A stretch of 64,000 nucleotides of DNA, from positions 1-64,000 of the forward strand of contig CALLQB010000005.1 of the NCBI GenBank assembly GCA_938015295.1. Reading direction: 5' to 3'. Position 1 is the stretch's first letter. The number at the start of each line of letters is the position of its first letter. The DNA comes from an uncultured Acidimicrobiales bacterium (lineage in GTDB: Bacteria; Actinomycetota; Acidimicrobiia; Acidimicrobiales; SHLQ01). The notes below the pieces were generated by a model. That model did not search any database and was not told where the DNA came from. It saw only the letters and a program-made list of their open reading frames with translations. Positions 21,596-31,897 of the stretch are shown here, piece by piece. The translations under genes and the position numbers were made by a program.

Positions 21596-22237
21596 GTGGC
21601 GGACTTTGTGGACGTAGTTATCCAATTTCCTACGATTATTTTTACTGTTGCTCTTGCGGCTTCATTCATCTTCTTTGTCCTGACAACGCTTCTGGGTCTG
21701 GGCGGTGAGGGCGGCTTCGACCTTGACGTTGACGTCGGCGGCGATGTTGGCGATCTTGACGCCGACCCAGGTGGCTTGTTCGAAAGTCTTGGGCTTGCAG
21801 GAATACCGCTTGCCGTTACCGCAACGTTGGTCTCGCTCTTCGCCTGGTTTTCGAGCCTGGTACTGATGTCTCTTGTGGGTGACCGCTCCACCGCAGTGCT
21901 GGTTGGGATCGGCTTCGTTGTCCTAGTGGTCGCGTTAGGGATTGGCTTTATCGCAGCGAGCTTTTTCTCCCGACCGATGTCCCGAATTTTCAACGCGACG
22001 GGCAGTCGTCGGCGCGGCGATCTTTCGGGGCAGCTGTGCACGGTCACCACACTCAAAGTCACCGAAGACTTCGGGCAGGCCGAAGTAGCCGATGCATCTG
22101 GCGGCAGCCACCTTGTGCAGATCAGATGTGGCGACGACAACAACCTCACGGCCGGCGATCAGGCGCTGATCTTTGGTCTCGATACCGCAACCGACGCCTA
22201 CCTTGTCTCTCCCGATGTGGGTGAAATCGGTGCGTAA
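21596..22237 (+). CDS. NfeD-family membrane protein (flotillin-associated, C-terminal OB-fold)
   Basis: 213 aa. GTG start with an AGGAG site 10 nt upstream. N-terminal TM helices, acidic/Gly loop, C-terminal soluble domain. Lies immediately upstream of the flotillin gene, as in nfeD-floT/yqiJK pairs. Confidence 0.7.
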   Translation: MADFVDVVIQFPTIIFTVALAASFIFFVLTTLLGLGGEGGFDLDVDVGGDVGDLDADPGGLFESLGLAGIPLAVTATLVSLFAWFSSLVLMSLVGDRSTAVLVGIGFVVLVVALGIGFIAASFFSRPMSRIFNATGSRRRGDLSGQLCTVTTLKVTEDFGQAEVADASGGSHLVQIRCGDDNNLTAGDQALIFGLDTATDAYLVSPDVGEIGA

Positions 22238-22247
22238 TCAGCCCCAC

Positions 22248-22282
22248 CTTCAGTACTCAATCTTCAGTACTCAATCTTCAGA
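22248..22282. repeat. 14-bp direct tandem repeat (2.5 units) in the nfeD-flotillin intergenic spacer
   Basis: cttcagtactcaat cttcagtactcaat cttcaga. Confidence 0.9.
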
Positions 22283-22345: not shown

Positions 22346-24382
22346 ATGACTATCTTGATTGGAATTGGCGTTGTCATTGCGTTCATCGTCGCCATCGCGC
22401 TGCTAGTCGGCCTGATGTTCAGCCGACTGTTTCGAAAGGTCCCGCAGGGCAAAGCGCTTGTGGTCAGCACGATGAACGACGTCGTGGTGTCCTTCACCGG
22501 CCGCGTCGTGCTGCCGGTGATCCACAAAGCCGAGATCATGGATACTTCGGTCAAAACGATCGAGATCGATCGGCGCGCCACCGAAGGGCTGATCTGCCGC
22601 GACAACATCCGGGCCGATATCAAGGTCAACTTCTTCGTGCGAGTCAACAACGTCGAAGAAGACGTCATCAAGGTGGCGCAGGCCATTGGCGTCGAGCGAG
22701 CAAGCCAACAGGAAACGCTCGAGGAGCTCTTCACCGCAAAATTCTCCGAAGCGCTCAAGACGGTGGGCAAGCGACTCGACTTCATCGATCTCTACACCGA
22801 ACGTCGCCGTTTCCGCGACGAAATCATTGAGGTCATCGGCACCGACCTCAACGGGTACGTGCTTGAGGATGCAGCGATCGACTATCTCGAACAGACACCG
22901 CTTTCGAGCCTCGACGACACCAACATTCTCGACGCACAGGGCATCCGCAAGATCACCGAACTCACCGCCCTTGAACATGTGGCAACCAACGTCGCCACCC
23001 GCGAAGAAGAAAAGCAGATCACCCAAAAAGACGTTGAAACCCGCGAAGCGGTGCTTGAGCTTCACCGCCAGCAAGCCGATGCTGAGGCCCGTCAGGCCCG
23101 CGAAATTCAGACGGTCCGCTCACGGGAGCAAGCAGAAACTGCCAAGGTCGCCGCTGAGGAACGCCTGCGTGCCGAAACAGCGCGCCTTCTCACCGAGCAA
23201 GACGTTGGGGTGCAAGAAGAGAACCGTCAGCGCGAGATCGAAGTTGCGGCGAAGAACCGAGAGCGAGTGGTCGCGATCGAAGAAGAACGCATCATCAAAG
23301 CGCGCGACCTCGAAGTGATTGCCCGCGAGCTCGAAACAGTCGGAGCGACCAAGGGTCTTGAAATCGAAAAAACCGAGATCGCCGAGATCGTGTCGAAACG
23401 AACCGCGGTCGAGAAATCGGTGGCCGAGGAAGAAGAAGCTATCAAGACGCTGCGAGTCGTCGAGGAAGCAAACCGCAACCGCGATGCACAGGTCATCGAA
23501 GCCGAAGCCGAAGCCGAAGGTGCATTCGTCAAAGACATCAAAGCCGCCGAGGCGGCAGAAAAGGCTGCGCAACACAAAGCCACCGAGCGGGTCACCTTGT
23601 CGCGAGCCGATCTCGAAGCGAGCGACCTTGATGCCAAGGCAATGACTCGTTTGGCCGAAGGAACCCAGGCCGAAGCTGCCGCAAAGGGCCTCGCCGAGGT
23701 GACCGTGCGCGAAGCCGACGCGGTCGCGATCGAAAAGGTGGGCTTGGCCGAAGTACGTGTCCGCGAAGCCGACGCCGGCGCAACCCAGAAAGAAGGCGTG
23801 GTCGGGGCTGCGGTTGTCCGCGAACTCGGTCTCGCTGAAGCTGAGGCCACCGAAGCGAAGCTTCGTGGAGAAGCGGCTGGTCTGACCGAGAAGGCCGCAG
23901 CAATGCGCGAACTTGAAGGTGTCGGCCAGGAGTTTGAAGAATTCACCCGTCGTCTCGATGCGCAAAAAGAGGTCGATCTCGCCAAGGTCGACGCTCAACT
24001 CGGTATCGGCACGGCACAGGCCGAGGCGTTGAAGGCCGGACTCGAAAGCGCAGACATCGACATCGTCGGAGGCTCAGATATCTTTGTCGATCGCCTCGTC
24101 GGCGCCGTAGCCGGTGGTAAATCGGTCGACGCCTTTGTCGAGAATTCGGGCACCACCAGCAAGGTGTTCGGCAAATACCTCGAAGGCGATGGCGACATCG
24201 TTGCCGACCTCACCGAGCTCACCGCAGGGCTTGGCGGCGCGGGTGTACGCGACCTCACTATCTCGGCATTCCTCGCCCAGATGATGAAGAACTCCAGCGG
24301 CGACACCAGCGCAAAGATCAATAACATCATCGAGGCCGTCGCCCGAGAGGGAATCGGCGACCTGCCGATCGGCGATCTCTAA
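22346..24382 (+). CDS. flotillin family SPFH-domain protein (FloT/YqiK-like)
   Basis: 678 aa. N-terminal TM anchor, SPFH/band-7 domain, long Glu/Ala/Arg-rich coiled-coil flotillin region, Gly/Ala-rich C-terminus. Confidence 0.9.
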   Translation: MTILIGIGVVIAFIVAIALLVGLMFSRLFRKVPQGKALVVSTMNDVVVSFTGRVVLPVIHKAEIMDTSVKTIEIDRRATEGLICRDNIRADIKVNFFVRVNNVEEDVIKVAQAIGVERASQQETLEELFTAKFSEALKTVGKRLDFIDLYTERRRFRDEIIEVIGTDLNGYVLEDAAIDYLEQTPLSSLDDTNILDAQGIRKITELTALEHVATNVATREEEKQITQKDVETREAVLELHRQQADAEARQAREIQTVRSREQAETAKVAAEERLRAETARLLTEQDVGVQEENRQREIEVAAKNRERVVAIEEERIIKARDLEVIARELETVGATKGLEIEKTEIAEIVSKRTAVEKSVAEEEEAIKTLRVVEEANRNRDAQVIEAEAEAEGAFVKDIKAAEAAEKAAQHKATERVTLSRADLEASDLDAKAMTRLAEGTQAEAAAKGLAEVTVREADAVAIEKVGLAEVRVREADAGATQKEGVVGAAVVRELGLAEAEATEAKLRGEAAGLTEKAAAMRELEGVGQEFEEFTRRLDAQKEVDLAKVDAQLGIGTAQAEALKAGLESADIDIVGGSDIFVDRLVGAVAGGKSVDAFVENSGTTSKVFGKYLEGDGDIVADLTELTAGLGGAGVRDLTISAFLAQMMKNSSGDTSAKINNIIEAVAREGIGDLPIGDL

Positions 24383-24403: not shown

Positions 24404-27400
24404 GTGACTGACGTACAAACCGAAGCCGTCGCTGCTGACGCGGTGGCCGACGCCGCCGGGGCAGGCACCTACGAGCTGCTCCGCGCCCGGCTTGTCGAAC
24501 ATGCTGACGAACTGGGACGCCGCGCGGCCCGGCTCAACGAGCAACGGTTGGATGCCTTCGGCACCAGTCGGTTCGAGCTCGTCGGCAGCGAACGGATTCG
24601 CACCGCGAACAATTGTGTGTCGCGCGATATCGCAGCAGTCGGCGACCAACTGCTGTTTGGTTACAACGTATTCATCGGTCTCAAAAGCGAAACGTCGATC
24701 GACGATGTCTTTAGCGCTCACCGCCTAACGACAGGAGACGACGGCGCCTTCGCGTTGTCGGTGCTTGACGAGGGCAGCGACGTCGGCTGGCTCCACGACC
24801 CGGCCTTTCTCAACGACTTCGCCGAGCTCACCCGCTATTACAAGGAGAACAAACTTCTTCAGATTCGACGCACTGAGGGTCGCTTGCTCGCGGTGTTTCA
24901 GATCGGCAATTCCATCGACGACATCCGCGTGTTTCGTTGGGAAATTTCACCCGACGGTGCAGCCCGGTATCTCGACAACCGGGGCGAACGCGATCATCAG
25001 TATCCACCCCAGTTCGGCTTCGAATGGACGCCGGTAAACCGCGAGCAGCAGGTCGGTGGACGAACGCCACACGTCAACATCGACGATCGTGTCTTTGTCT
25101 ACCTTGTCGGCGGCAAGCTCGAGATCAGGCTCGAAGACAACACCGAAACTGGACTAACCGTTCTCGCCGAGACTATCGACAACGCCGACCAGTCGGTCGA
25201 CGATGCCGACATGTCCTTCGCCTTGGTCGGCGACCTGGTTTTGCTGCGAGTGAAGCCCTACCTCGAAGACCACGACAGGTACTTCGTCGTCAACCTCTTC
25301 AACCGAACCGCCCTGCGTGCTGACGCGCTTGGCCAGTCTTGCCAGCTTCTTCCCGAGGATCATGGGCTCATTTTCCCGGGCGGCTATTACCTCCGCGAGG
25401 GCGACACAAAGATCTTCGATCTCGAAACTGCCTCGATGGAATTCAAGGCCGAGATCCGCTCGCCCAACGGCGAAGATGTGTTGTACGCCTTCCATCAGCG
25501 CAGCGAAGGTCGCACAATTCTCCTCAGCTACAACATGATTCGTCGAGAGGTAGCGCCACCGATCAACTGCCATGGCTACAGCCTGTTCGAGAACGGCACC
25601 CTCATCGTTTTTCGTGACGATGGTGAGCCGACTCGGGTGCACCCGATGCAGATTTGGGCGACGCCGTTTGTCAGTGCCGACTTCCACGCCCGACAACCGC
25701 TCGGCGACGGATTCCTCGATCGCATCGGCAATGCCGAAGCGGTGCGCGGCGTCAGCGAGGGGCTCAACATTCGGCGGCTTGTCGCTGATGTCGAACCGTC
25801 GGTCGCGGTGTTCGAGGCGTTGTCTACCAGCACGGTGCGAGTACTCGATGCCCACCCGTGGCTGGCTGATGATGCCGCAGGTGACCTCGCGTCGCCGCTG
25901 CACGAGATCCGGTCGACATCCGAGCTGATCATCGACGAGTTCGAAAAGGCCGAGTCGCTTAAGGCCACCGCCGTCGATGTAGTAGCAGAAGCCAGGACCG
26001 ACATCGATGCGGTAGTCGACGAACTTCGTCAGCAGAAGCCTTCGACCACCCAGCAGTACGTCACCGCGTTGCAGAAACTTCGCCGCCAACAGGGCCACCT
26101 GCTCACGATCCGCGATGTTCGCTACGTGGACAACGAGGCCCTCGACGAGCTCAGTGTCTCTGTACAGGAGGCGTTCGATCAACTGTCGAGCCAGGCTGTC
26201 GAGTTCCTTGCCGACGACGGCGCCTTTGAAGGATTCCATACCGACGTCGCACAACTGACCAACACGATCGAGGCGACATCGAAGGTCACCGAGCTCGCCC
26301 CGCATCTTGAGGCGCTCGACGAGATCGGCGGCGGACTCGACCTTCTCACCGAAGTAGTCGGCGGCCTCGACATCGAAGATGCCACCGTTCGCACCAGCAT
26401 TTTTGAACGCGTGTCGGTGGTGATGGGCCTACTCAACCGGTCGCGGGCCGTAGCCGAGAACCAGCGTCGCACGTTGGGCGACGCCGAAAGCAGCGCGGCG
26501 TTTGGTGTCGAGTTTGGTTTGTTTTCCCAATCGGTCACCGCCGAATTGTCGCGGTCGACGACCCCCGAGCGTGCTGACGCTGCGCTTGGGACGCTGCTGG
26601 TGCAGCTGGAAAATCTCGAGAGCAGGTTCGGCGAATCAGACGAGTACCTCGACCAGATCGGAACCAAACGCGAAGACGTGTACGAGGCGTTCTCGTCGCG
26701 CAAACAAACGCTGATCGACGACCGGCAGCGTTCGGCCCGACGGCTCGTCGACGCATCAGAACGCATTCTTACCAGCGTCAATCGCCGGATCGAAGGGTTC
26801 GAATCGCCCGACGAGATCAACGCCTTCTTTGTTGCCGACCCGCTGGTAGCAAAGGTTCGCACGATCGCCGAAGACCTCCGCGGACTCGATGAGCAGGTTC
26901 GGGCCGACGAAGTGCTTCGCACGCTTGAAACAGCGAAAGAGGAAGCCGCCCGGTCGTTGCGCGACCGCACCGACATCTTCGAAGAAGGCGGCCAGGTCAT
27001 TCGTCTTGGCCGGCACCGGTTCAGCGTCGACTCGCAGAACCTCGAACTCACCACCGCCGTGGTCGACGACGAACTCAACATCGTTCTCACCGGGACCGAC
27101 TTTCGCGAACCGGCGACCGCTAGCGAGCTTGAAGCGAGCGAGCTCGCAGAGCTTCGCCCGTTCTGGGATCAGACGCTCGTCTCTGAGCGTGCGAATTTTA
27201 GTCGGGTCGAGTTTCTCGCAACCTCAATTCTGGCCGATTCGGCATCGGGTCGAAACGAACTATCGATGCCGCTGCTCTGCGAGGCTGCAGGCTCAGCAAC
27301 TGGCCTTGAAGAACTTGTTCGCTCCGTCGGAGAAAAGCGGGTTGACGAAGGTTACGACCGAGGGGTTCACGACCACGACGCCGCAAAGATCCTTGCGGTT

Positions 27401-29518
27401 CTTGTGCAGCGCTGGGACGAAGTGGCACTGCTGCGCTTCGAGCCTGACGCACGGGCGCTGGCTCAGGTGTTCTGGGCGCACGGGGTCGACGAAGACACCC
27501 GACGAGATCTCCTCGCCCGCGGTATCAGTCTCGGTCGTCTCCGCGCCACCTTCGCAAACTCGCCGGCACTCGATGATTTCGTCGCTGACCTAACGAGCCG
27601 ACTGGCAGGCTTTGCCGAGCAGTATCGGTCGATCGCTGGCGACGTCGACCTGGTCGCCACCGCCAGGTATCTGTTTGAAGAACTTGCTGAAGAGCCACTG
27701 GCGTTTGTCGTCAGTAGTGCTGCAGCAGAACTTCGCGATGCCCTGCAGCTGCACCACGACACGTCAGGCATCGCCGAGGCGTTCGCAGAACTCGATGGCC
27801 TCGCCGATCGGCACCGGTTGTTGCATGCATGGTTCGAGGCTTTCGCTGCGGCCGAACGTCCCGCGTCGATTCCGTATGTCCCCGAAGCGGTTGCGTTGCT
27901 CATGGCAGCCGACCTTCCGCACCAGGCAGGAGCCGTCGACCTGCAGTGCACCGTCGAAGGCCTGCTTGCCCAACATCCCCGCATCCGTAACCAGTCTCTC
28001 GAGTTTCGCTACGACCAGCTGCTTGCTGAGGGCGAGCAATACCGTCGCGACGTGGTTCCCGGTTTCCGGTCGTATCAAACGCAACGCCACCAGTTGTTGA
28101 CAGCAGCACGGCGTCGGCTCCGGCTCGACGAGTTCACACCGAAGGTGATGAGCGCCTTTGTGCGTAATCAGCTGATCGACCAGGTGTATCTGCCCTTTAT
28201 TGGCGACAACCTTGCGAAACAGCTCGGAACGATCGAAGGTGGCCGCACCGATCAGATGGGCCTCCTCTTGCTGATCTCACCTCCGGGCTACGGCAAGACG
28301 ACGCTGATGGAATACGTCGCAAACCGTCTTGGCATGGTTTTTGTGAAAGTAAACGGTCCGGCGCTCGGCCATGGCGTCGACTCGCTCGACCCCACCGAAG
28401 CGCCCAACGCTACAGCGGCCCAAGAGGTCGACAAGATAAACTTTGCCCTCGAAATGGGCAGCAATGTGCTGCTCTATCTCGACGACATTCAGCACACGAA
28501 CCCCGAACTTCTGCAGAAGTTCATTTCGATGTCTGACGCGCAGCGCCGGATGGAGGGCGTGTGGAACGGCCGCACGCGAACCTATGACCTCCGTGGCAAA
28601 CGGTTCGCCGTGGTCATGGCCGGCAACCCCTACACCGAGTCCGGCGAACGCTTCCAGATTCCCGACATGCTCGCCAACCGCGCCGACACGTACAACCTTG
28701 GCGATGTGCTCACCGGCAACGATCAGCAGTTTGCACTCAGCTATCTCGAGAACTCGCTCACGTCGAATCCCGTGCTCGCCAGCCTTACCACTCGCGACCC
28801 GGCCGACACACTCAAACTCATCGCAATGGCACAGGGCGATGCCGTGTCGCCCGACGACCTTTCGCATCCGTACTCGGCGGTCGAGATCGACGAACTTGTC
28901 GCGACCTTCCGTCGGTTGATCCGGGTGCAGGAAGTACTGCTTGCGGTGAATCAGACCTACATCAGTTCAGCGTCGCAAGAAGACGAGTTCCGCACCGAGC
29001 CCCGGTTCCAGCTCCAGGGTTCGTACCGAAATATGAACCGTCTCGCCGAGAAGGTTTTGCCGGTGATGAACGACGACGAACTCGAAGCGCTGCTCGACGA
29101 TCACTACGTCGGCGAAGCCCAGACACTCACCACCGGAGCCGAGGCCAACCTGCTCAAGCTCCGTGAACTCCGCGGCGTCCTCGACGAGCAAGATGCGGCG
29201 CGTTGGGACGACATCAAGAACGGCTATCGGCGCACCAAACTGATGGGCGGCGCCGACGACGACCCGATGGTGCGCGTCGCAGGCGCCGTCAGCGGCATCT
29301 CTGAGCAACTTCGTGCGTTGGCCGCCCAGCGTGGCCCCGACGCGGCCGAGGCAATGGCGCTGTTCGACGAGACGCTGCGCGAGTTGATTCGAGCCGACGA
29401 AAAAAGCCGCGAGGAACGTCGGGCCGCCTATCGAGCGCGAGCCACCGACCAAGGTTCGGGCCCTAAGAGCACGCTGAAGCCGCCGCCTCCCGCTCCTGGC
29501 GACGAGTCAGCGGGATAG
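24404..29518 (+). CDS. giant AAA+ ATPase (1704 aa): large uncharacterised N-terminal domain, long helical middle region, single P-loop ATPase module near the C-terminus
   Basis: GTG start 21 nt after the flotillin stop. Walker A LLISPPGYGKTTL (~nt 28280), Walker B VLLYLDDIQH (~nt 28470), sensor-like VVMAGNPY. Overall layout resembles proteins that databases label 'DNA repair ATPase' / DUF3686-AAA, which I cannot verify here. Confidence 0.8.
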   Translation: MTDVQTEAVAADAVADAAGAGTYELLRARLVEHADELGRRAARLNEQRLDAFGTSRFELVGSERIRTANNCVSRDIAAVGDQLLFGYNVFIGLKSETSIDDVFSAHRLTTGDDGAFALSVLDEGSDVGWLHDPAFLNDFAELTRYYKENKLLQIRRTEGRLLAVFQIGNSIDDIRVFRWEISPDGAARYLDNRGERDHQYPPQFGFEWTPVNREQQVGGRTPHVNIDDRVFVYLVGGKLEIRLEDNTETGLTVLAETIDNADQSVDDADMSFALVGDLVLLRVKPYLEDHDRYFVVNLFNRTALRADALGQSCQLLPEDHGLIFPGGYYLREGDTKIFDLETASMEFKAEIRSPNGEDVLYAFHQRSEGRTILLSYNMIRREVAPPINCHGYSLFENGTLIVFRDDGEPTRVHPMQIWATPFVSADFHARQPLGDGFLDRIGNAEAVRGVSEGLNIRRLVADVEPSVAVFEALSTSTVRVLDAHPWLADDAAGDLASPLHEIRSTSELIIDEFEKAESLKATAVDVVAEARTDIDAVVDELRQQKPSTTQQYVTALQKLRRQQGHLLTIRDVRYVDNEALDELSVSVQEAFDQLSSQAVEFLADDGAFEGFHTDVAQLTNTIEATSKVTELAPHLEALDEIGGGLDLLTEVVGGLDIEDATVRTSIFERVSVVMGLLNRSRAVAENQRRTLGDAESSAAFGVEFGLFSQSVTAELSRSTTPERADAALGTLLVQLENLESRFGESDEYLDQIGTKREDVYEAFSSRKQTLIDDRQRSARRLVDASERILTSVNRRIEGFESPDEINAFFVADPLVAKVRTIAEDLRGLDEQVRADEVLRTLETAKEEAARSLRDRTDIFEEGGQVIRLGRHRFSVDSQNLELTTAVVDDELNIVLTGTDFREPATASELEASELAELRPFWDQTLVSERANFSRVEFLATSILADSASGRNELSMPLLCEAAGSATGLEELVRSVGEKRVDEGYDRGVHDHDAAKILAVLVQRWDEVALLRFEPDARALAQVFWAHGVDEDTRRDLLARGISLGRLRATFANSPALDDFVADLTSRLAGFAEQYRSIAGDVDLVATARYLFEELAEEPLAFVVSSAAAELRDALQLHHDTSGIAEAFAELDGLADRHRLLHAWFEAFAAAERPASIPYVPEAVALLMAADLPHQAGAVDLQCTVEGLLAQHPRIRNQSLEFRYDQLLAEGEQYRRDVVPGFRSYQTQRHQLLTAARRRLRLDEFTPKVMSAFVRNQLIDQVYLPFIGDNLAKQLGTIEGGRTDQMGLLLLISPPGYGKTTLMEYVANRLGMVFVKVNGPALGHGVDSLDPTEAPNATAAQEVDKINFALEMGSNVLLYLDDIQHTNPELLQKFISMSDAQRRMEGVWNGRTRTYDLRGKRFAVVMAGNPYTESGERFQIPDMLANRADTYNLGDVLTGNDQQFALSYLENSLTSNPVLASLTTRDPADTLKLIAMAQGDAVSPDDLSHPYSAVEIDELVATFRRLIRVQEVLLAVNQTYISSASQEDEFRTEPRFQLQGSYRNMNRLAEKVLPVMNDDELEALLDDHYVGEAQTLTTGAEANLLKLRELRGVLDEQDAARWDDIKNGYRRTKLMGGADDDPMVRVAGAVSGISEQLRALAAQRGPDAAEAMALFDETLRELIRADEKSREERRAAYRARATDQGSGPKSTLKPPPPAPGDESAG

Positions 29519-29584: not shown

Positions 29585-30310
29585 ATGCCACTACACAGCG
29601 AGTTGACGCAGTTCGGAGAAATTCCGGCCGGCGAGCAGCAGTTTCAGCTACAGAACAAAAAGCTGCTTCGGGTGACCCTGGCTTATGGGCCGGTCGAAGC
29701 AATGAGCGGATCGATGGTGGCATACCAAGGTGCTGCCACCTTCGAGAACAAAGGTTCGGGCAGCATGAGCAAGATGCTCAAGAAGGCGACCACCGGCGAG
29801 GGCGTCAAGATGATGCACGTCGGCGGAACGGGCGAGGTCTTCTTGGCTGACAAGGCCCACGACATCCAGGTGATGTATCTCGAGAACGACTCGATTTCGG
29901 TCAACGGGTCAAACGTCCTCGCGTTCTCAAGTTCGATTGAATGGGACATCCAGAAGCTGAGCGGCGGGGGAGTTGCTGGAGCAATGGCAGGTGGCCTGTT
30001 CAACGTGACGCTTCGCGGCACCGGCTACGTGGCAATCACCACCGATGGCCCGCCCGTCATGCTCGATGTTTCTGCCGGCACAACCTTCGGCGATCCGCAG
30101 GCCGTGGTGATGTGGACCTCCGGGGTCCAGATGAACCTCAAGACCGATACCACCGGCGGCCTGAAATCACTGGCTCGGGGTGGTTCGGGCGAAACCTTCC
30201 AGATGGATTTCCACGGTCAAGGTTTTGTGCTGGTGCAGCCTTCGGAAGGCCGTATTTCGCCGAGTACAGGCGATGGCGGCGGTGGCCTCCTCGGAGCACT
30301 CTCGGGTTAA
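29585..30310 (+). CDS. AIM24 family protein (DUF124 / TIGR00266)
   Basis: 241 aa. Gly-rich beta protein with the pattern conserved in bacterial AIM24-like proteins (…MLDVSAGTTFGDPQAVVMWTSGVQ…). Good ribosome-binding site (GAAAGAGGA). Confidence 0.7.
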   Translation: MPLHSELTQFGEIPAGEQQFQLQNKKLLRVTLAYGPVEAMSGSMVAYQGAATFENKGSGSMSKMLKKATTGEGVKMMHVGGTGEVFLADKAHDIQVMYLENDSISVNGSNVLAFSSSIEWDIQKLSGGGVAGAMAGGLFNVTLRGTGYVAITTDGPPVMLDVSAGTTFGDPQAVVMWTSGVQMNLKTDTTGGLKSLARGGSGETFQMDFHGQGFVLVQPSEGRISPSTGDGGGGLLGALSG

Positions 30311-30985: not shown

Positions 30986-31897
30986 ATGGCAATCCGCAAA
31001 AAAATGGCAAAGAAAGCGGCGAAGAAGGCACTCAGCGCCGACATGATTCCCGCGCCGGTGCTCGAAGCAATCGGCAAGGGGATGGTCGAAGGCGTCGACA
31101 AGGCGGTCACCAAGCGTTGGCAGCGGGCGCTCGACCGAGCGGCCGAGACCCACGGCACCACCGAGCAGCGCATTGCCGAGGTGTACCAGGCATTTCAGAA
31201 AGAACTCACCGCAGCTGGCGCAGCCACAGGCGCCGCCGCAGCAACACCCGGTATTGGCACAGCCGCTGCAGCAAGCTGGCTTAGCGCCGATGTCGTGTGG
31301 TTGGCTCTTCGCTCGGCAGATCTCATCATGACGATTGCGGCAATCCACGGCCATACAGATTCAACGGTCGATCAACGGCGCGCGTGGGTGCTGTCGATTC
31401 TTGCCTTCGGCGACGAAGCGGCCGTTGAGTTTGGAACACTGGTAGAGCAGATGAATATCGGCACCTCCGCGTCGGCGGGAATGCGGATGCCCCTCGAGGT
31501 GATCGAACGGGTCAATACCTCACTCGGTTCGCACGTCCTCACCAAATACGGAACCCGACGCGGCATTGCGACCGTTGGTCGCCTGCTGCCGTTCGGTATC
31601 GGCGCGGTTATCGGCGGCGGCGCGAACTTCACGATGACCCGCAACCTTGCCAAACACGCCGACGCCTTCTTTCGAAACGCGCCGCTAGAAGAGTCGGGTT
31701 TCAACGCCGTCGAGGGCGAACGTTTTGTCATCGCCGCAGAAAGCCACGACCGATTCTCGGGCGCGTTACCTGCCGGAGAAGACTCGTATGGTCACCTTCC
31801 GCCGCCTCCTGTTGGTGCTGCCGGTTCCGAGCTACCTCCAGGCGACGACACGTCATCGAAACGCAGCCGGTTCGCTAGCCGGTGGAGTCGTAGCTGA
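30986..31897 (+). CDS. hypothetical protein (possibly EcsC-like)
   Basis: 303 aa. Lys-rich N-terminus, Ala/Gly-rich hydrophobic core. Family assignment is uncertain. Confidence 0.4.
   Translation: MAIRKKMAKKAAKKALSADMIPAPVLEAIGKGMVEGVDKAVTKRWQRALDRAAETHGTTEQRIAEVYQAFQKELTAAGAATGAAAATPGIGTAAAASWLSADVVWLALRSADLIMTIAAIHGHTDSTVDQRRAWVLSILAFGDEAAVEFGTLVEQMNIGTSASAGMRMPLEVIERVNTSLGSHVLTKYGTRRGIATVGRLLPFGIGAVIGGGANFTMTRNLAKHADAFFRNAPLEESGFNAVEGERFVIAAESHDRFSGALPAGEDSYGHLPPPPVGAAGSELPPGDDTSSKRSRFASRWSRS

Follow-up and report, generated by a model that had tools for sequence, protein, structure and literature searches.

Among the genes of an uncultured Acidimicrobiales bacterium (GenBank assembly GCA_938015295.1, contig CALLQB010000005.1), one raises the question of whether its product serves the DNA or the membrane. 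The gene, located at 24404..29518 of the 64,000-nucleotide stretch analysed here (positions 1 to 64,000 of the contig, hereafter the window), encodes a giant soluble AAA+ ATPase of 1704 residues, whose relatives are often named "DNA repair ATPase", and it is the third gene of a cassette that starts with a small membrane protein and a flotillin. With a probability of roughly 0.6, the ATPase would be the subunit that consumes ATP in a membrane-associated flotillin module of three genes, remodelling assemblies of flotillin and possibly of PspA. This reading draws on the homologies of the flotillin and YqiJ-like proteins, the synteny across genomes, the layout of transmembrane segments (none in the ATPase, one in the flotillin, and three in the YqiJ-like protein), the linkage to PspA, and an operon already described in the literature (PMC11237479). 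The three genes of the cassette and the parts of the ATPase located below lie on the forward strand.

The first gene of the cassette (21596..22237) is preceded by the Shine-Dalgarno-like sequence GGGAAGGAG, a good match, and encodes a YqiJ/YuaF (NfeD2)-like small membrane protein of 213 residues, with three hydrophobic segments and a C-terminal OB-like beta domain. Aligned as a family, these proteins match YqiJ from E. coli with an hhalign probability of 91.4% (E value 9e-7). The second gene (22346..24382) encodes a flotillin-family (SPFH2, YqiK-like) protein of 678 residues, which holds one N-terminal transmembrane segment according to its hydropathy (residues 1–32), an SPFH domain, and a long Glu/Ala-rich coiled-coil region. 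This protein has no match in Pfam or NCBIfam, the search of the flotillin profile against the PDB was also empty, and the Pfam model Band_7 detects only three out of 25 members of the family, the window copy not being among them. The homology was therefore shown via YqiK from the E. coli K-12 genome (BLASTP E value 4e-34, 27% identity over residues 15–462; hhalign probability 99.9%), and by these sequence comparisons the 678-residue protein is clearly a flotillin, although it belongs to a divergent subfamily compared to YqiK. Since both upstream proteins resemble YqiJ and YqiK and their genes follow the same order as in yqiJK, they represent a classical NfeD2–flotillin pair, with the features of the SPFH2–NfeD2 operons established previously (Hinderhofer et al. 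2009, PMC2636767). The operons yqiJK from E. coli and yuaF-floT from B. subtilis share these homologous first two genes in the same order; however, neither of them contains the giant ATPase.

The association of the ATPase with this pair was examined in 82 loci around ATPase homologues from species-representative genomes, comprising Actinomycetota, Myxococcota, Gammaproteobacteria, Acidobacteriota, and a metagenome-assembled genome of the Clostridia. A flotillin gene lies directly upstream of the ATPase gene in 80 of these loci, and the two exceptions are contig ends, which leaves 80 out of 80 informative cases. A YqiJ-like gene was found to precede the flotillin in 65 of the 82 genome loci, and in 56 out of 66 metagenome loci. 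In the reciprocal test, the ATPase was carried by 60 of the 66 metagenomic loci that hold a member of this flotillin subfamily with room downstream. The linkage is asymmetric: it reaches 100% from ATPase to flotillin and ~91% from flotillin to ATPase, and flotillin without the ATPase occurs, whereas the ATPase without flotillin has never been seen. Beyond the flotillin and the YqiJ-like protein, neighbour clustering yielded no further gene conserved across the loci, in an analysis that relied on naive longest open reading frame (ORF) calls, is subject to antisense shadow ORFs in high-GC DNA, and was used for this question only.

The six metagenomic loci where the ATPase does not follow (L101, L111, L116, L142, L143, and L144) hold flotillins of 47–51% identity.

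Gammaproteobacterial relatives place the cassette in a larger, PspA/CesT-like operon for envelope stress. DUF2170 (YjfI) and PspA/IM30 (YjfJ) are encoded upstream of it in 13 gammaproteobacterial loci, a phospholipase D gene lies downstream in eight, and a rhomboid gene adjoins it in six loci (five downstream and one upstream), M50B peptidase genes being also met among such neighbours, so that the full operon recovered in these relatives reads DUF2170, PspA, YqiJ-like protein, flotillin, ATPase, and rhomboid/phospholipase D. On pQBR103, a megaplasmid from Pseudomonas fluorescens SBW25 (L084, NC_009444.1 85464-104347), the cassette is joined to a PspA/rhomboid/polyamine operon in the order PspA, rhomboid, DUF2491, DUF350, DUF1190, glutathionylspermidine-synthase-like protein, YqiJ-like protein, SPFH protein, and "DNA repair ATPase"; this cassette represents a tractable experimental system.

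The same operon has been described by Ravi et al. 2024 (mSystems, PMC11237479), with CesT/Tir-PspA accompanied by three genes, including that of the YqiJ/YuaF protein with three transmembrane segments. Some of those operons add a phospholipase D, abbreviated operons without PspA are widespread, and roles in sub-membrane dynamics were proposed for them. The window carries the abbreviated form (YqiJ-like protein, flotillin, and ATPase), which belongs to the same family and the same operon, without any essential difference. Thus, earlier publications already cover the family, the outline of its architecture, and the membrane context in which it occurs. What is added here is the assignment to the MoxR clade, the spectrin-like region, and the Asp-Asp (DD) Walker B motif, none of which is given in PMC11237479, together with the quantification of the asymmetric linkage and the start/stop overlaps. 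The window copy contributes an Acidimicrobiales-like host, and adds nothing else beyond the family-level picture sketched in 2024.

A different role, namely the quality control of membrane proteins, is suggested by the rhomboid or M50B-type peptidase genes, which directly follow the ATPase in several gammaproteobacterial loci and, on pQBR103, precede the cassette. The ATPase, sitting on a flotillin platform, would extract or unfold damaged membrane proteins for intramembrane or membrane-bound proteases, as a soluble analogue of FtsH in the HflK/C cages, or like p97 with the rhomboid-like derlins. Pairs of SPFH proteins and AAA+ proteases are a known theme (PMC13376388 and PMC12005517). Nevertheless, protease genes are restricted to 6–7 of the 82 loci and absent from the window, the ATPase has no aromatic pore loop, and its AAA module is nearer to the MoxR type than to unfoldases of the Clp/FtsH type, all of which makes this role unlikely.

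The architecture of the ATPase was derived from two overlapping AlphaFold2 models built on 82-sequence alignments (residues 1–860, with a predicted local distance difference test (pLDDT) of 88.5; residues 841–1704, with a pLDDT of 87.4 and a predicted template modelling score of 0.76), while conservation is given as the residues invariant across 32 sequences from several phyla. The protein starts with an unconserved, disordered head (residues 1–20; pLDDT below 50 for residues 1–19) and a long N-terminal helix (24464..24568, residues ~21–55; helix 22–52 in the model), followed by a predicted beta-propeller (24569..25669, residues ~56–422) that forms the core of Pfam DUF3686, with approximately 30 strands in sets of four and 25% of its residues invariant. 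Helical region A (25670..26983, residues ~423–860) is predicted to consist of tandem bundles of long helices (48–58 residues) resembling spectrin repeats, and contains the Pfam domain DUF7902 (26222-26470, residues 607–689). It is separated by a small beta domain (26984..27133, residues ~861–910; strands in the second model at model residues 25–63, equivalent to 865–903 of the protein) from helical region B (27134..28138, residues ~911–1245), the least conserved part, which comprises a small beta element and a long connecting helix (residues ~1173–1239, the beta part at ~1173–1202). The helical parts are invariant at 8–13% of their positions, in comparison with 54% in the alpha/beta core of the AAA+ module (28139..28723, residues ~1246–1440). 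This core is followed by a helical lid and a C-terminal helical domain (28724..29449, residues ~1441–1682) with the invariant motif EPxFQLQGSYRNMN (residues ~1532–1544), and by a disordered Pro-rich tail (29450..29515, residues 1683–1704) with a pLDDT below 50 and no conservation. In these models, most of the N-terminal ~1250 residues are thus taken up by a beta-propeller and by helices of the spectrin-like kind.

Pfam assigns DUF3686/PF12458 to residues 36–484 (E value 4e-184), DUF7902/PF25472 to residues 607–689 (E value 2e-26), and both AAA and AAA_5, weakly yet above threshold, to residues 1288–1412. This architecture of DUF3686, DUF7902, and a C-terminal AAA module is common to all listed homologues, and N-terminal domains of the DUF3686 type are nearly confined to proteins of 1590–2036 residues. 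The initial annotation, made from the sequence alone, was right in dividing the protein into a beta-rich N-terminus, a helical middle, and a late P-loop, and also in describing the middle as rich in Leu, Ala, Glu, and Arg, the four residues that lead the composition of residues 430–1280; however, the helical part is broken by the beta elements at ~865–903 and ~1173–1202, which that annotation overlooked, as it did the membership of DUF3686 and DUF7902, the YqiJ-like gene of the cassette, and the published operon. No hydrophobic segment of the ATPase fits a transmembrane helix in its hydropathy profile.

The propeller bears many invariant charged or aromatic motifs, among them DNRGERDH (residues ~191–198), RSPNGEDV (~352–359), and EPTRVHPMQxWxTP (~408–421). 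They exceed what a passive scaffold would need, which suggests, as far as sequence conservation can tell, that the propeller holds a specific site for binding a ligand or a peptide, or even a catalytic one.

Names given to the relatives in their source databases include "DNA repair ATPase", "ATPase involved in DNA repair", "MoxR-like ATPase" (JGI, for some members), and "AAA family ATPase". Taken at its word, the first of them would make the protein a DNA-repair ATPase of the SMC/Rad50/SbcC type, a role supported only by the name itself and by a superficial likeness, in that long helices occur together with a P-loop. However, Walker A and Walker B are only ~65 residues apart, within one AAA+ fold (residues 1292–1361), instead of lying at opposite ends of a coiled coil; Pfam and the fold searches of the AlphaFold2 models found no nuclease, helicase, or DNA-binding fold, nor any ABC/SMC feature; the neighbouring genes include none for repair, whether SbcD-like or other; and the linkage to membrane proteins is invariant. 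Such a role deserves hardly any credence. The initial annotation had already noted that the label lacks experimental support, and had taken the flotillin context to argue for a membrane rather than a DNA role. Both views agree with the present data: the label recurs with no experimental study to be found behind it, flotillin lies upstream in all of the informative genomes, and the N-terminal ~1250 residues, where a nuclease or helicase fold would have spoken for DNA, gave none in the fold searches. We infer that the ATPase is not a DNA-repair enzyme, and the database name, being unsupported, should not be propagated.

The catalytic motifs lie in the last quarter of the protein, within a few bases of where the initial annotation had placed them (~28281–28309 for Walker A and 28466–28489 for Walker B). 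Walker A is SPPGYGKTT (28277..28303, residues 1292–1300), in which GYGKTT is invariant; Walker B is LLYLDD (28469..28486, residues 1356–1361), with D1360 and D1361 invariant; and sensor 1 is NPY (28625..28633, residues 1408–1410), at the end of strand beta4, with N1408 invariant. MoxR-type ATPases carry "LDRF" motifs, and by analogy with these the invariant R1426 of the sequence LANRAD (28670..28687, residues 1423–1428), which precedes beta5, is a candidate arginine finger. Together with the alpha/beta core and the helical lid, these elements comprise the features of the AAA+ superfamily.

Regarding the clade, the best structural matches of the AAA module are two proteins of the MoxR type, CbbQ (Z 17.2, with 240 of 267 residues aligned) and NorQ (16.3), followed by dynein (15.5), midasin (14.9), ClpA (13.9), ClpB (13.1), and classical AAA proteins (~12). 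The AAA_5 profile aligns almost end to end, whereas the alignment to the AAA profile is confined to the stretch between Walker A and Walker B. A pre-sensor-1 beta-hairpin is predicted at residues 1382–1395, and the link between beta2 and alpha2 is modelled as an 18-residue loop without a hairpin, so that no helix-2 insert is evident in the predicted structure. The sequence before and around Walker A is nearest to the classical AAA proteins Rix7, NVL, and p97; the PDB, searched both with the protein alone and with a profile of 32 sequences, returned only matches to the Walker A region (Rix7, NVL, p97, and RuvB, with an E value of 2e-4 at best), which are uninformative on the clade. The models thus place the module closest to the AAA_5/MoxR/dynein clade, a grouping raised as a question in the initial annotation, by a modest, structure-based margin of only 3 Z.

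This grouping brings in a further alternative, a canonical MoxR maturation chaperone, in which the ring would insert a cofactor into a client or activate it, like CbbQ with CbbO, NorQ with NorD, or RavA with ViaA, and flotillin would merely localise it. Apart from CbbQ and NorQ being the top structural matches, the almost full-length alignment to AAA_5 and the "MoxR-like ATPase" labels from JGI are in agreement with this idea. Nevertheless, neither the cassette nor the ATPase yielded a VWA/MIDAS partner or domain, no conserved client gene adjoins the cassette, and the ~1250-residue extension formed by the propeller and the spectrin-like region is foreign to known MoxR proteins (CbbQ, NorQ, and RavA), which range from ~270 to 500 residues in comparison with the 1704 of this ATPase. 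A chaperone of this kind is accordingly regarded as improbable.

The distribution of the ATPase is patchy, with at least 571 matched stretches in 185,579 species genomes. Tractable organisms with members of the family include Streptomyces, Myxococcus, Pseudomonas (with pQBR103), Proteus mirabilis, and Vibrio campbellii. Plasmids seldom carry it (13 of 72,556 records, mostly megaplasmids or chromids), and no homologue was found in 50,697 phage records. Patchiness, the occurrence of the cassette on some megaplasmids, and the phospholipase D gene that adjoins it in some loci could be expected from an anti-phage or abortive-infection module, with a membrane scaffold and a large NTPase acting as sensor and effector, and in the window an EcsC-like gene with a match to PDC-S29, a PADLOC candidate, lies close by. 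However, none of the three cassette proteins has a significant match in PADLOC-DB v2, where the ATPase reaches matches at the level of Walker A only (IetA, E value 2e-3; mad8, E value 3e-3), and the flotillin and YqiJ-like proteins none. The phage records are devoid of homologues, and the ATPases, 44–54% identical across phyla and with 54% of the AAA core invariant, are unlike fast-evolving defence genes. Moreover, the surroundings in the window are housekeeping and metabolic genes, and the EcsC link is kept in the closest relative only. A defence function is, on balance, very unlikely.

The remodelling of flotillin assemblies is better supported than any of these alternatives. Under this model, the ATPase would form an AAA+ ring, probably a hexamer as in other AAA+ proteins, from which six long helical arms would extend and end in beta-propellers. 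These arms may dock on the cytoplasmic dome of flotillin, or on its coiled-coil or C-terminal segments, and possibly on PspA polymers, and the binding and hydrolysis of ATP would build up, take apart, or reshape these scaffolds when the membrane is under stress or being repaired, in a manner likened to Vps4 on ESCRT-III, or to the SPFH–AAA+ pairs HflK/C–FtsH and prohibitin–m-AAA. A bolder and more tentative version, for which the odds are rather against, sees a dedicated flotillin remodelling machine, a MoxR-like hexamer whose propeller-tipped, spectrin-like arms hold on to the flotillin dome, and to PspA where it occurs, with ATP opening, closing, or recycling the dome. If true, bacteria would possess an equivalent of coat-uncoating or Vps4-type reactions, and flotillins would have their first known ATP-dependent regulator; the layout of propeller and helices recalls that of eukaryotic membrane-coat proteins. 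To our knowledge, the function of bacterial flotillins is disputed, and we know of no energy-consuming partner of a flotillin. The obligate linkage to flotillin, the strong conservation, and the tie to PspA offer a testable handle on that function.

Several observations weigh against the remodelling of flotillin by this ATPase. First of all, Asp takes the place of the usual catalytic Glu in Walker B, the Asp-Asp pair (28481-28486, residues 1360–1361) being invariant, and hydrolysis may therefore be slow or switch-like. Most AAA+ ATPases hold Asp-Glu at this position, although DnaA-type initiators also hold DD. Second, no aromatic pore-loop residue can be read from the sequence after strand beta2 (GPALGHGVDSLDP), and classical substrate threading is therefore unlikely. 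Third, Pfam and neighbour scans found no VWA domain in the ATPase or its neighbouring genes, and canonical MoxR proteins act with a VWA partner. Fourth, ~9% of the loci of the flotillin subfamily do without the ATPase, so that flotillin does not need it in order to function. Fifth, a PspA hidden Markov model found nothing in the window (64 kb) or, for the non-gammaproteobacterial loci, in the 10 kb around the cassette, a scan that leaves room for distant PspA homologues or for copies elsewhere in the genome. Finally, no experimental work on any member of the ATPase family was found in the literature, where the searches returned no mention of DUF3686 or PF12458 either, and the interaction with flotillin, the formation of a ring, and the ATPase activity are all inferred.

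Among the known systems that it resembles are HflK/C–FtsH and prohibitin–m-AAA, where an oligomeric SPFH scaffold is likewise paired with a membrane AAA+ ATPase, the pairing being one of genes in the present case. Despite this similarity, FtsH and m-AAA are membrane-anchored proteases of the classical clade, whereas the ATPase of the cassette is soluble, MoxR-like, and without a protease domain; besides, its SPFH partner is a flotillin (SPFH2) that is itself accompanied by an NfeD2/YqiJ protein. In contrast to the MoxR, dynein, and midasin proteins of the AAA_5 type, it has neither a VWA/MIDAS partner nor an evident helix-2 beta-insert, and its Walker B is DD rather than DE. Vps4 with ESCRT-III and PspF with PspA, the latter a member of the ESCRT-III superfamily, are analogies only, as AAA+ proteins that remodel or regulate a membrane polymer. 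Vps4 belongs to the classical clade and PspF is a sigma-54 activator, while the ATPase comes from a different clade and has no MIT or DNA-binding domain.

The gene itself is sound. Its reading frame is unbroken in the ORF listing and translation, and its third-position GC of 0.72 is like that of the other real genes of the window. An identical 1704-residue protein exists in public data, the best 120 of more than 4,300 scored homologues each cover 93–100% of the query, and thousands of homologues share its colinear layout. This excludes a frameshift or an artefact of assembly, a concern voiced in the initial annotation.

The ATPase starts with GTG, 21 nt after the stop codon of flotillin (24380-24382), and this spacer contains no Shine-Dalgarno-like sequence, in agreement with the initial annotation, which had also proposed translational coupling to flotillin. 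Among 79 related loci, the ATPase start and the flotillin stop have 4 nt in common (GTGA) in 15, all of them with GTG starts, and the two genes overlap or lie 30 nt apart or less in 36. These overlaps and short gaps make coupling credible, and it is plausible as a trait of the lineage (Actinomycetota); for the 21-nt gap of the window it may be presumed, although they are no proof for this copy. Scans for promoters and terminators yielded nothing exceeding shuffled expectation.

Wider spacings also occur. Four loci (L040, L068, L069, and L079) have 420–520 nt between flotillin and ATPase, which could hold an extra small gene, and in L078, from Myxococcales bacterium 68-20, the flotillin lies ~6.4 kb upstream of the ATPase, not adjacent to it.

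Downstream of the ATPase, the window contains an AIM24-family gene (29585-30310; PF01987, E value 4e-35) and the EcsC-like gene (30986-31897; PF12787; PDC-S29 with an E value of 9e-18). Both were considered as members of the cassette and rejected, as they are kept in the closest relative (L003, 82% identical), and in none of the other 81 loci. In the two loci from Phytohabitans suffuscus (L001 and L002), genes for membrane remodelling (Dynamin_N, IniB, and HSP70-like proteins) lie on the opposite strand, ~1–5 kb downstream of the ATPase, an association that was not seen conserved in other loci.

Homologues of the ATPase fall into two length classes, one of ~1600–1660 residues, mostly from Actinomycetota, and another of ~1840–1930 residues, from Acidobacteriota and Myxococcota/"delta". 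The longer class apparently bears a C-terminal extension, as in L020, where the ORF runs ~195 codons past the aligned region. Lastly, the 108-nt spacer between the YqiJ-like and flotillin genes of the window contains a perfect 14-nt tandem repeat, CTTCAGTACTCAAT, in 2.4 copies (22248-22281), possibly a site of regulation or else a duplication by slippage.

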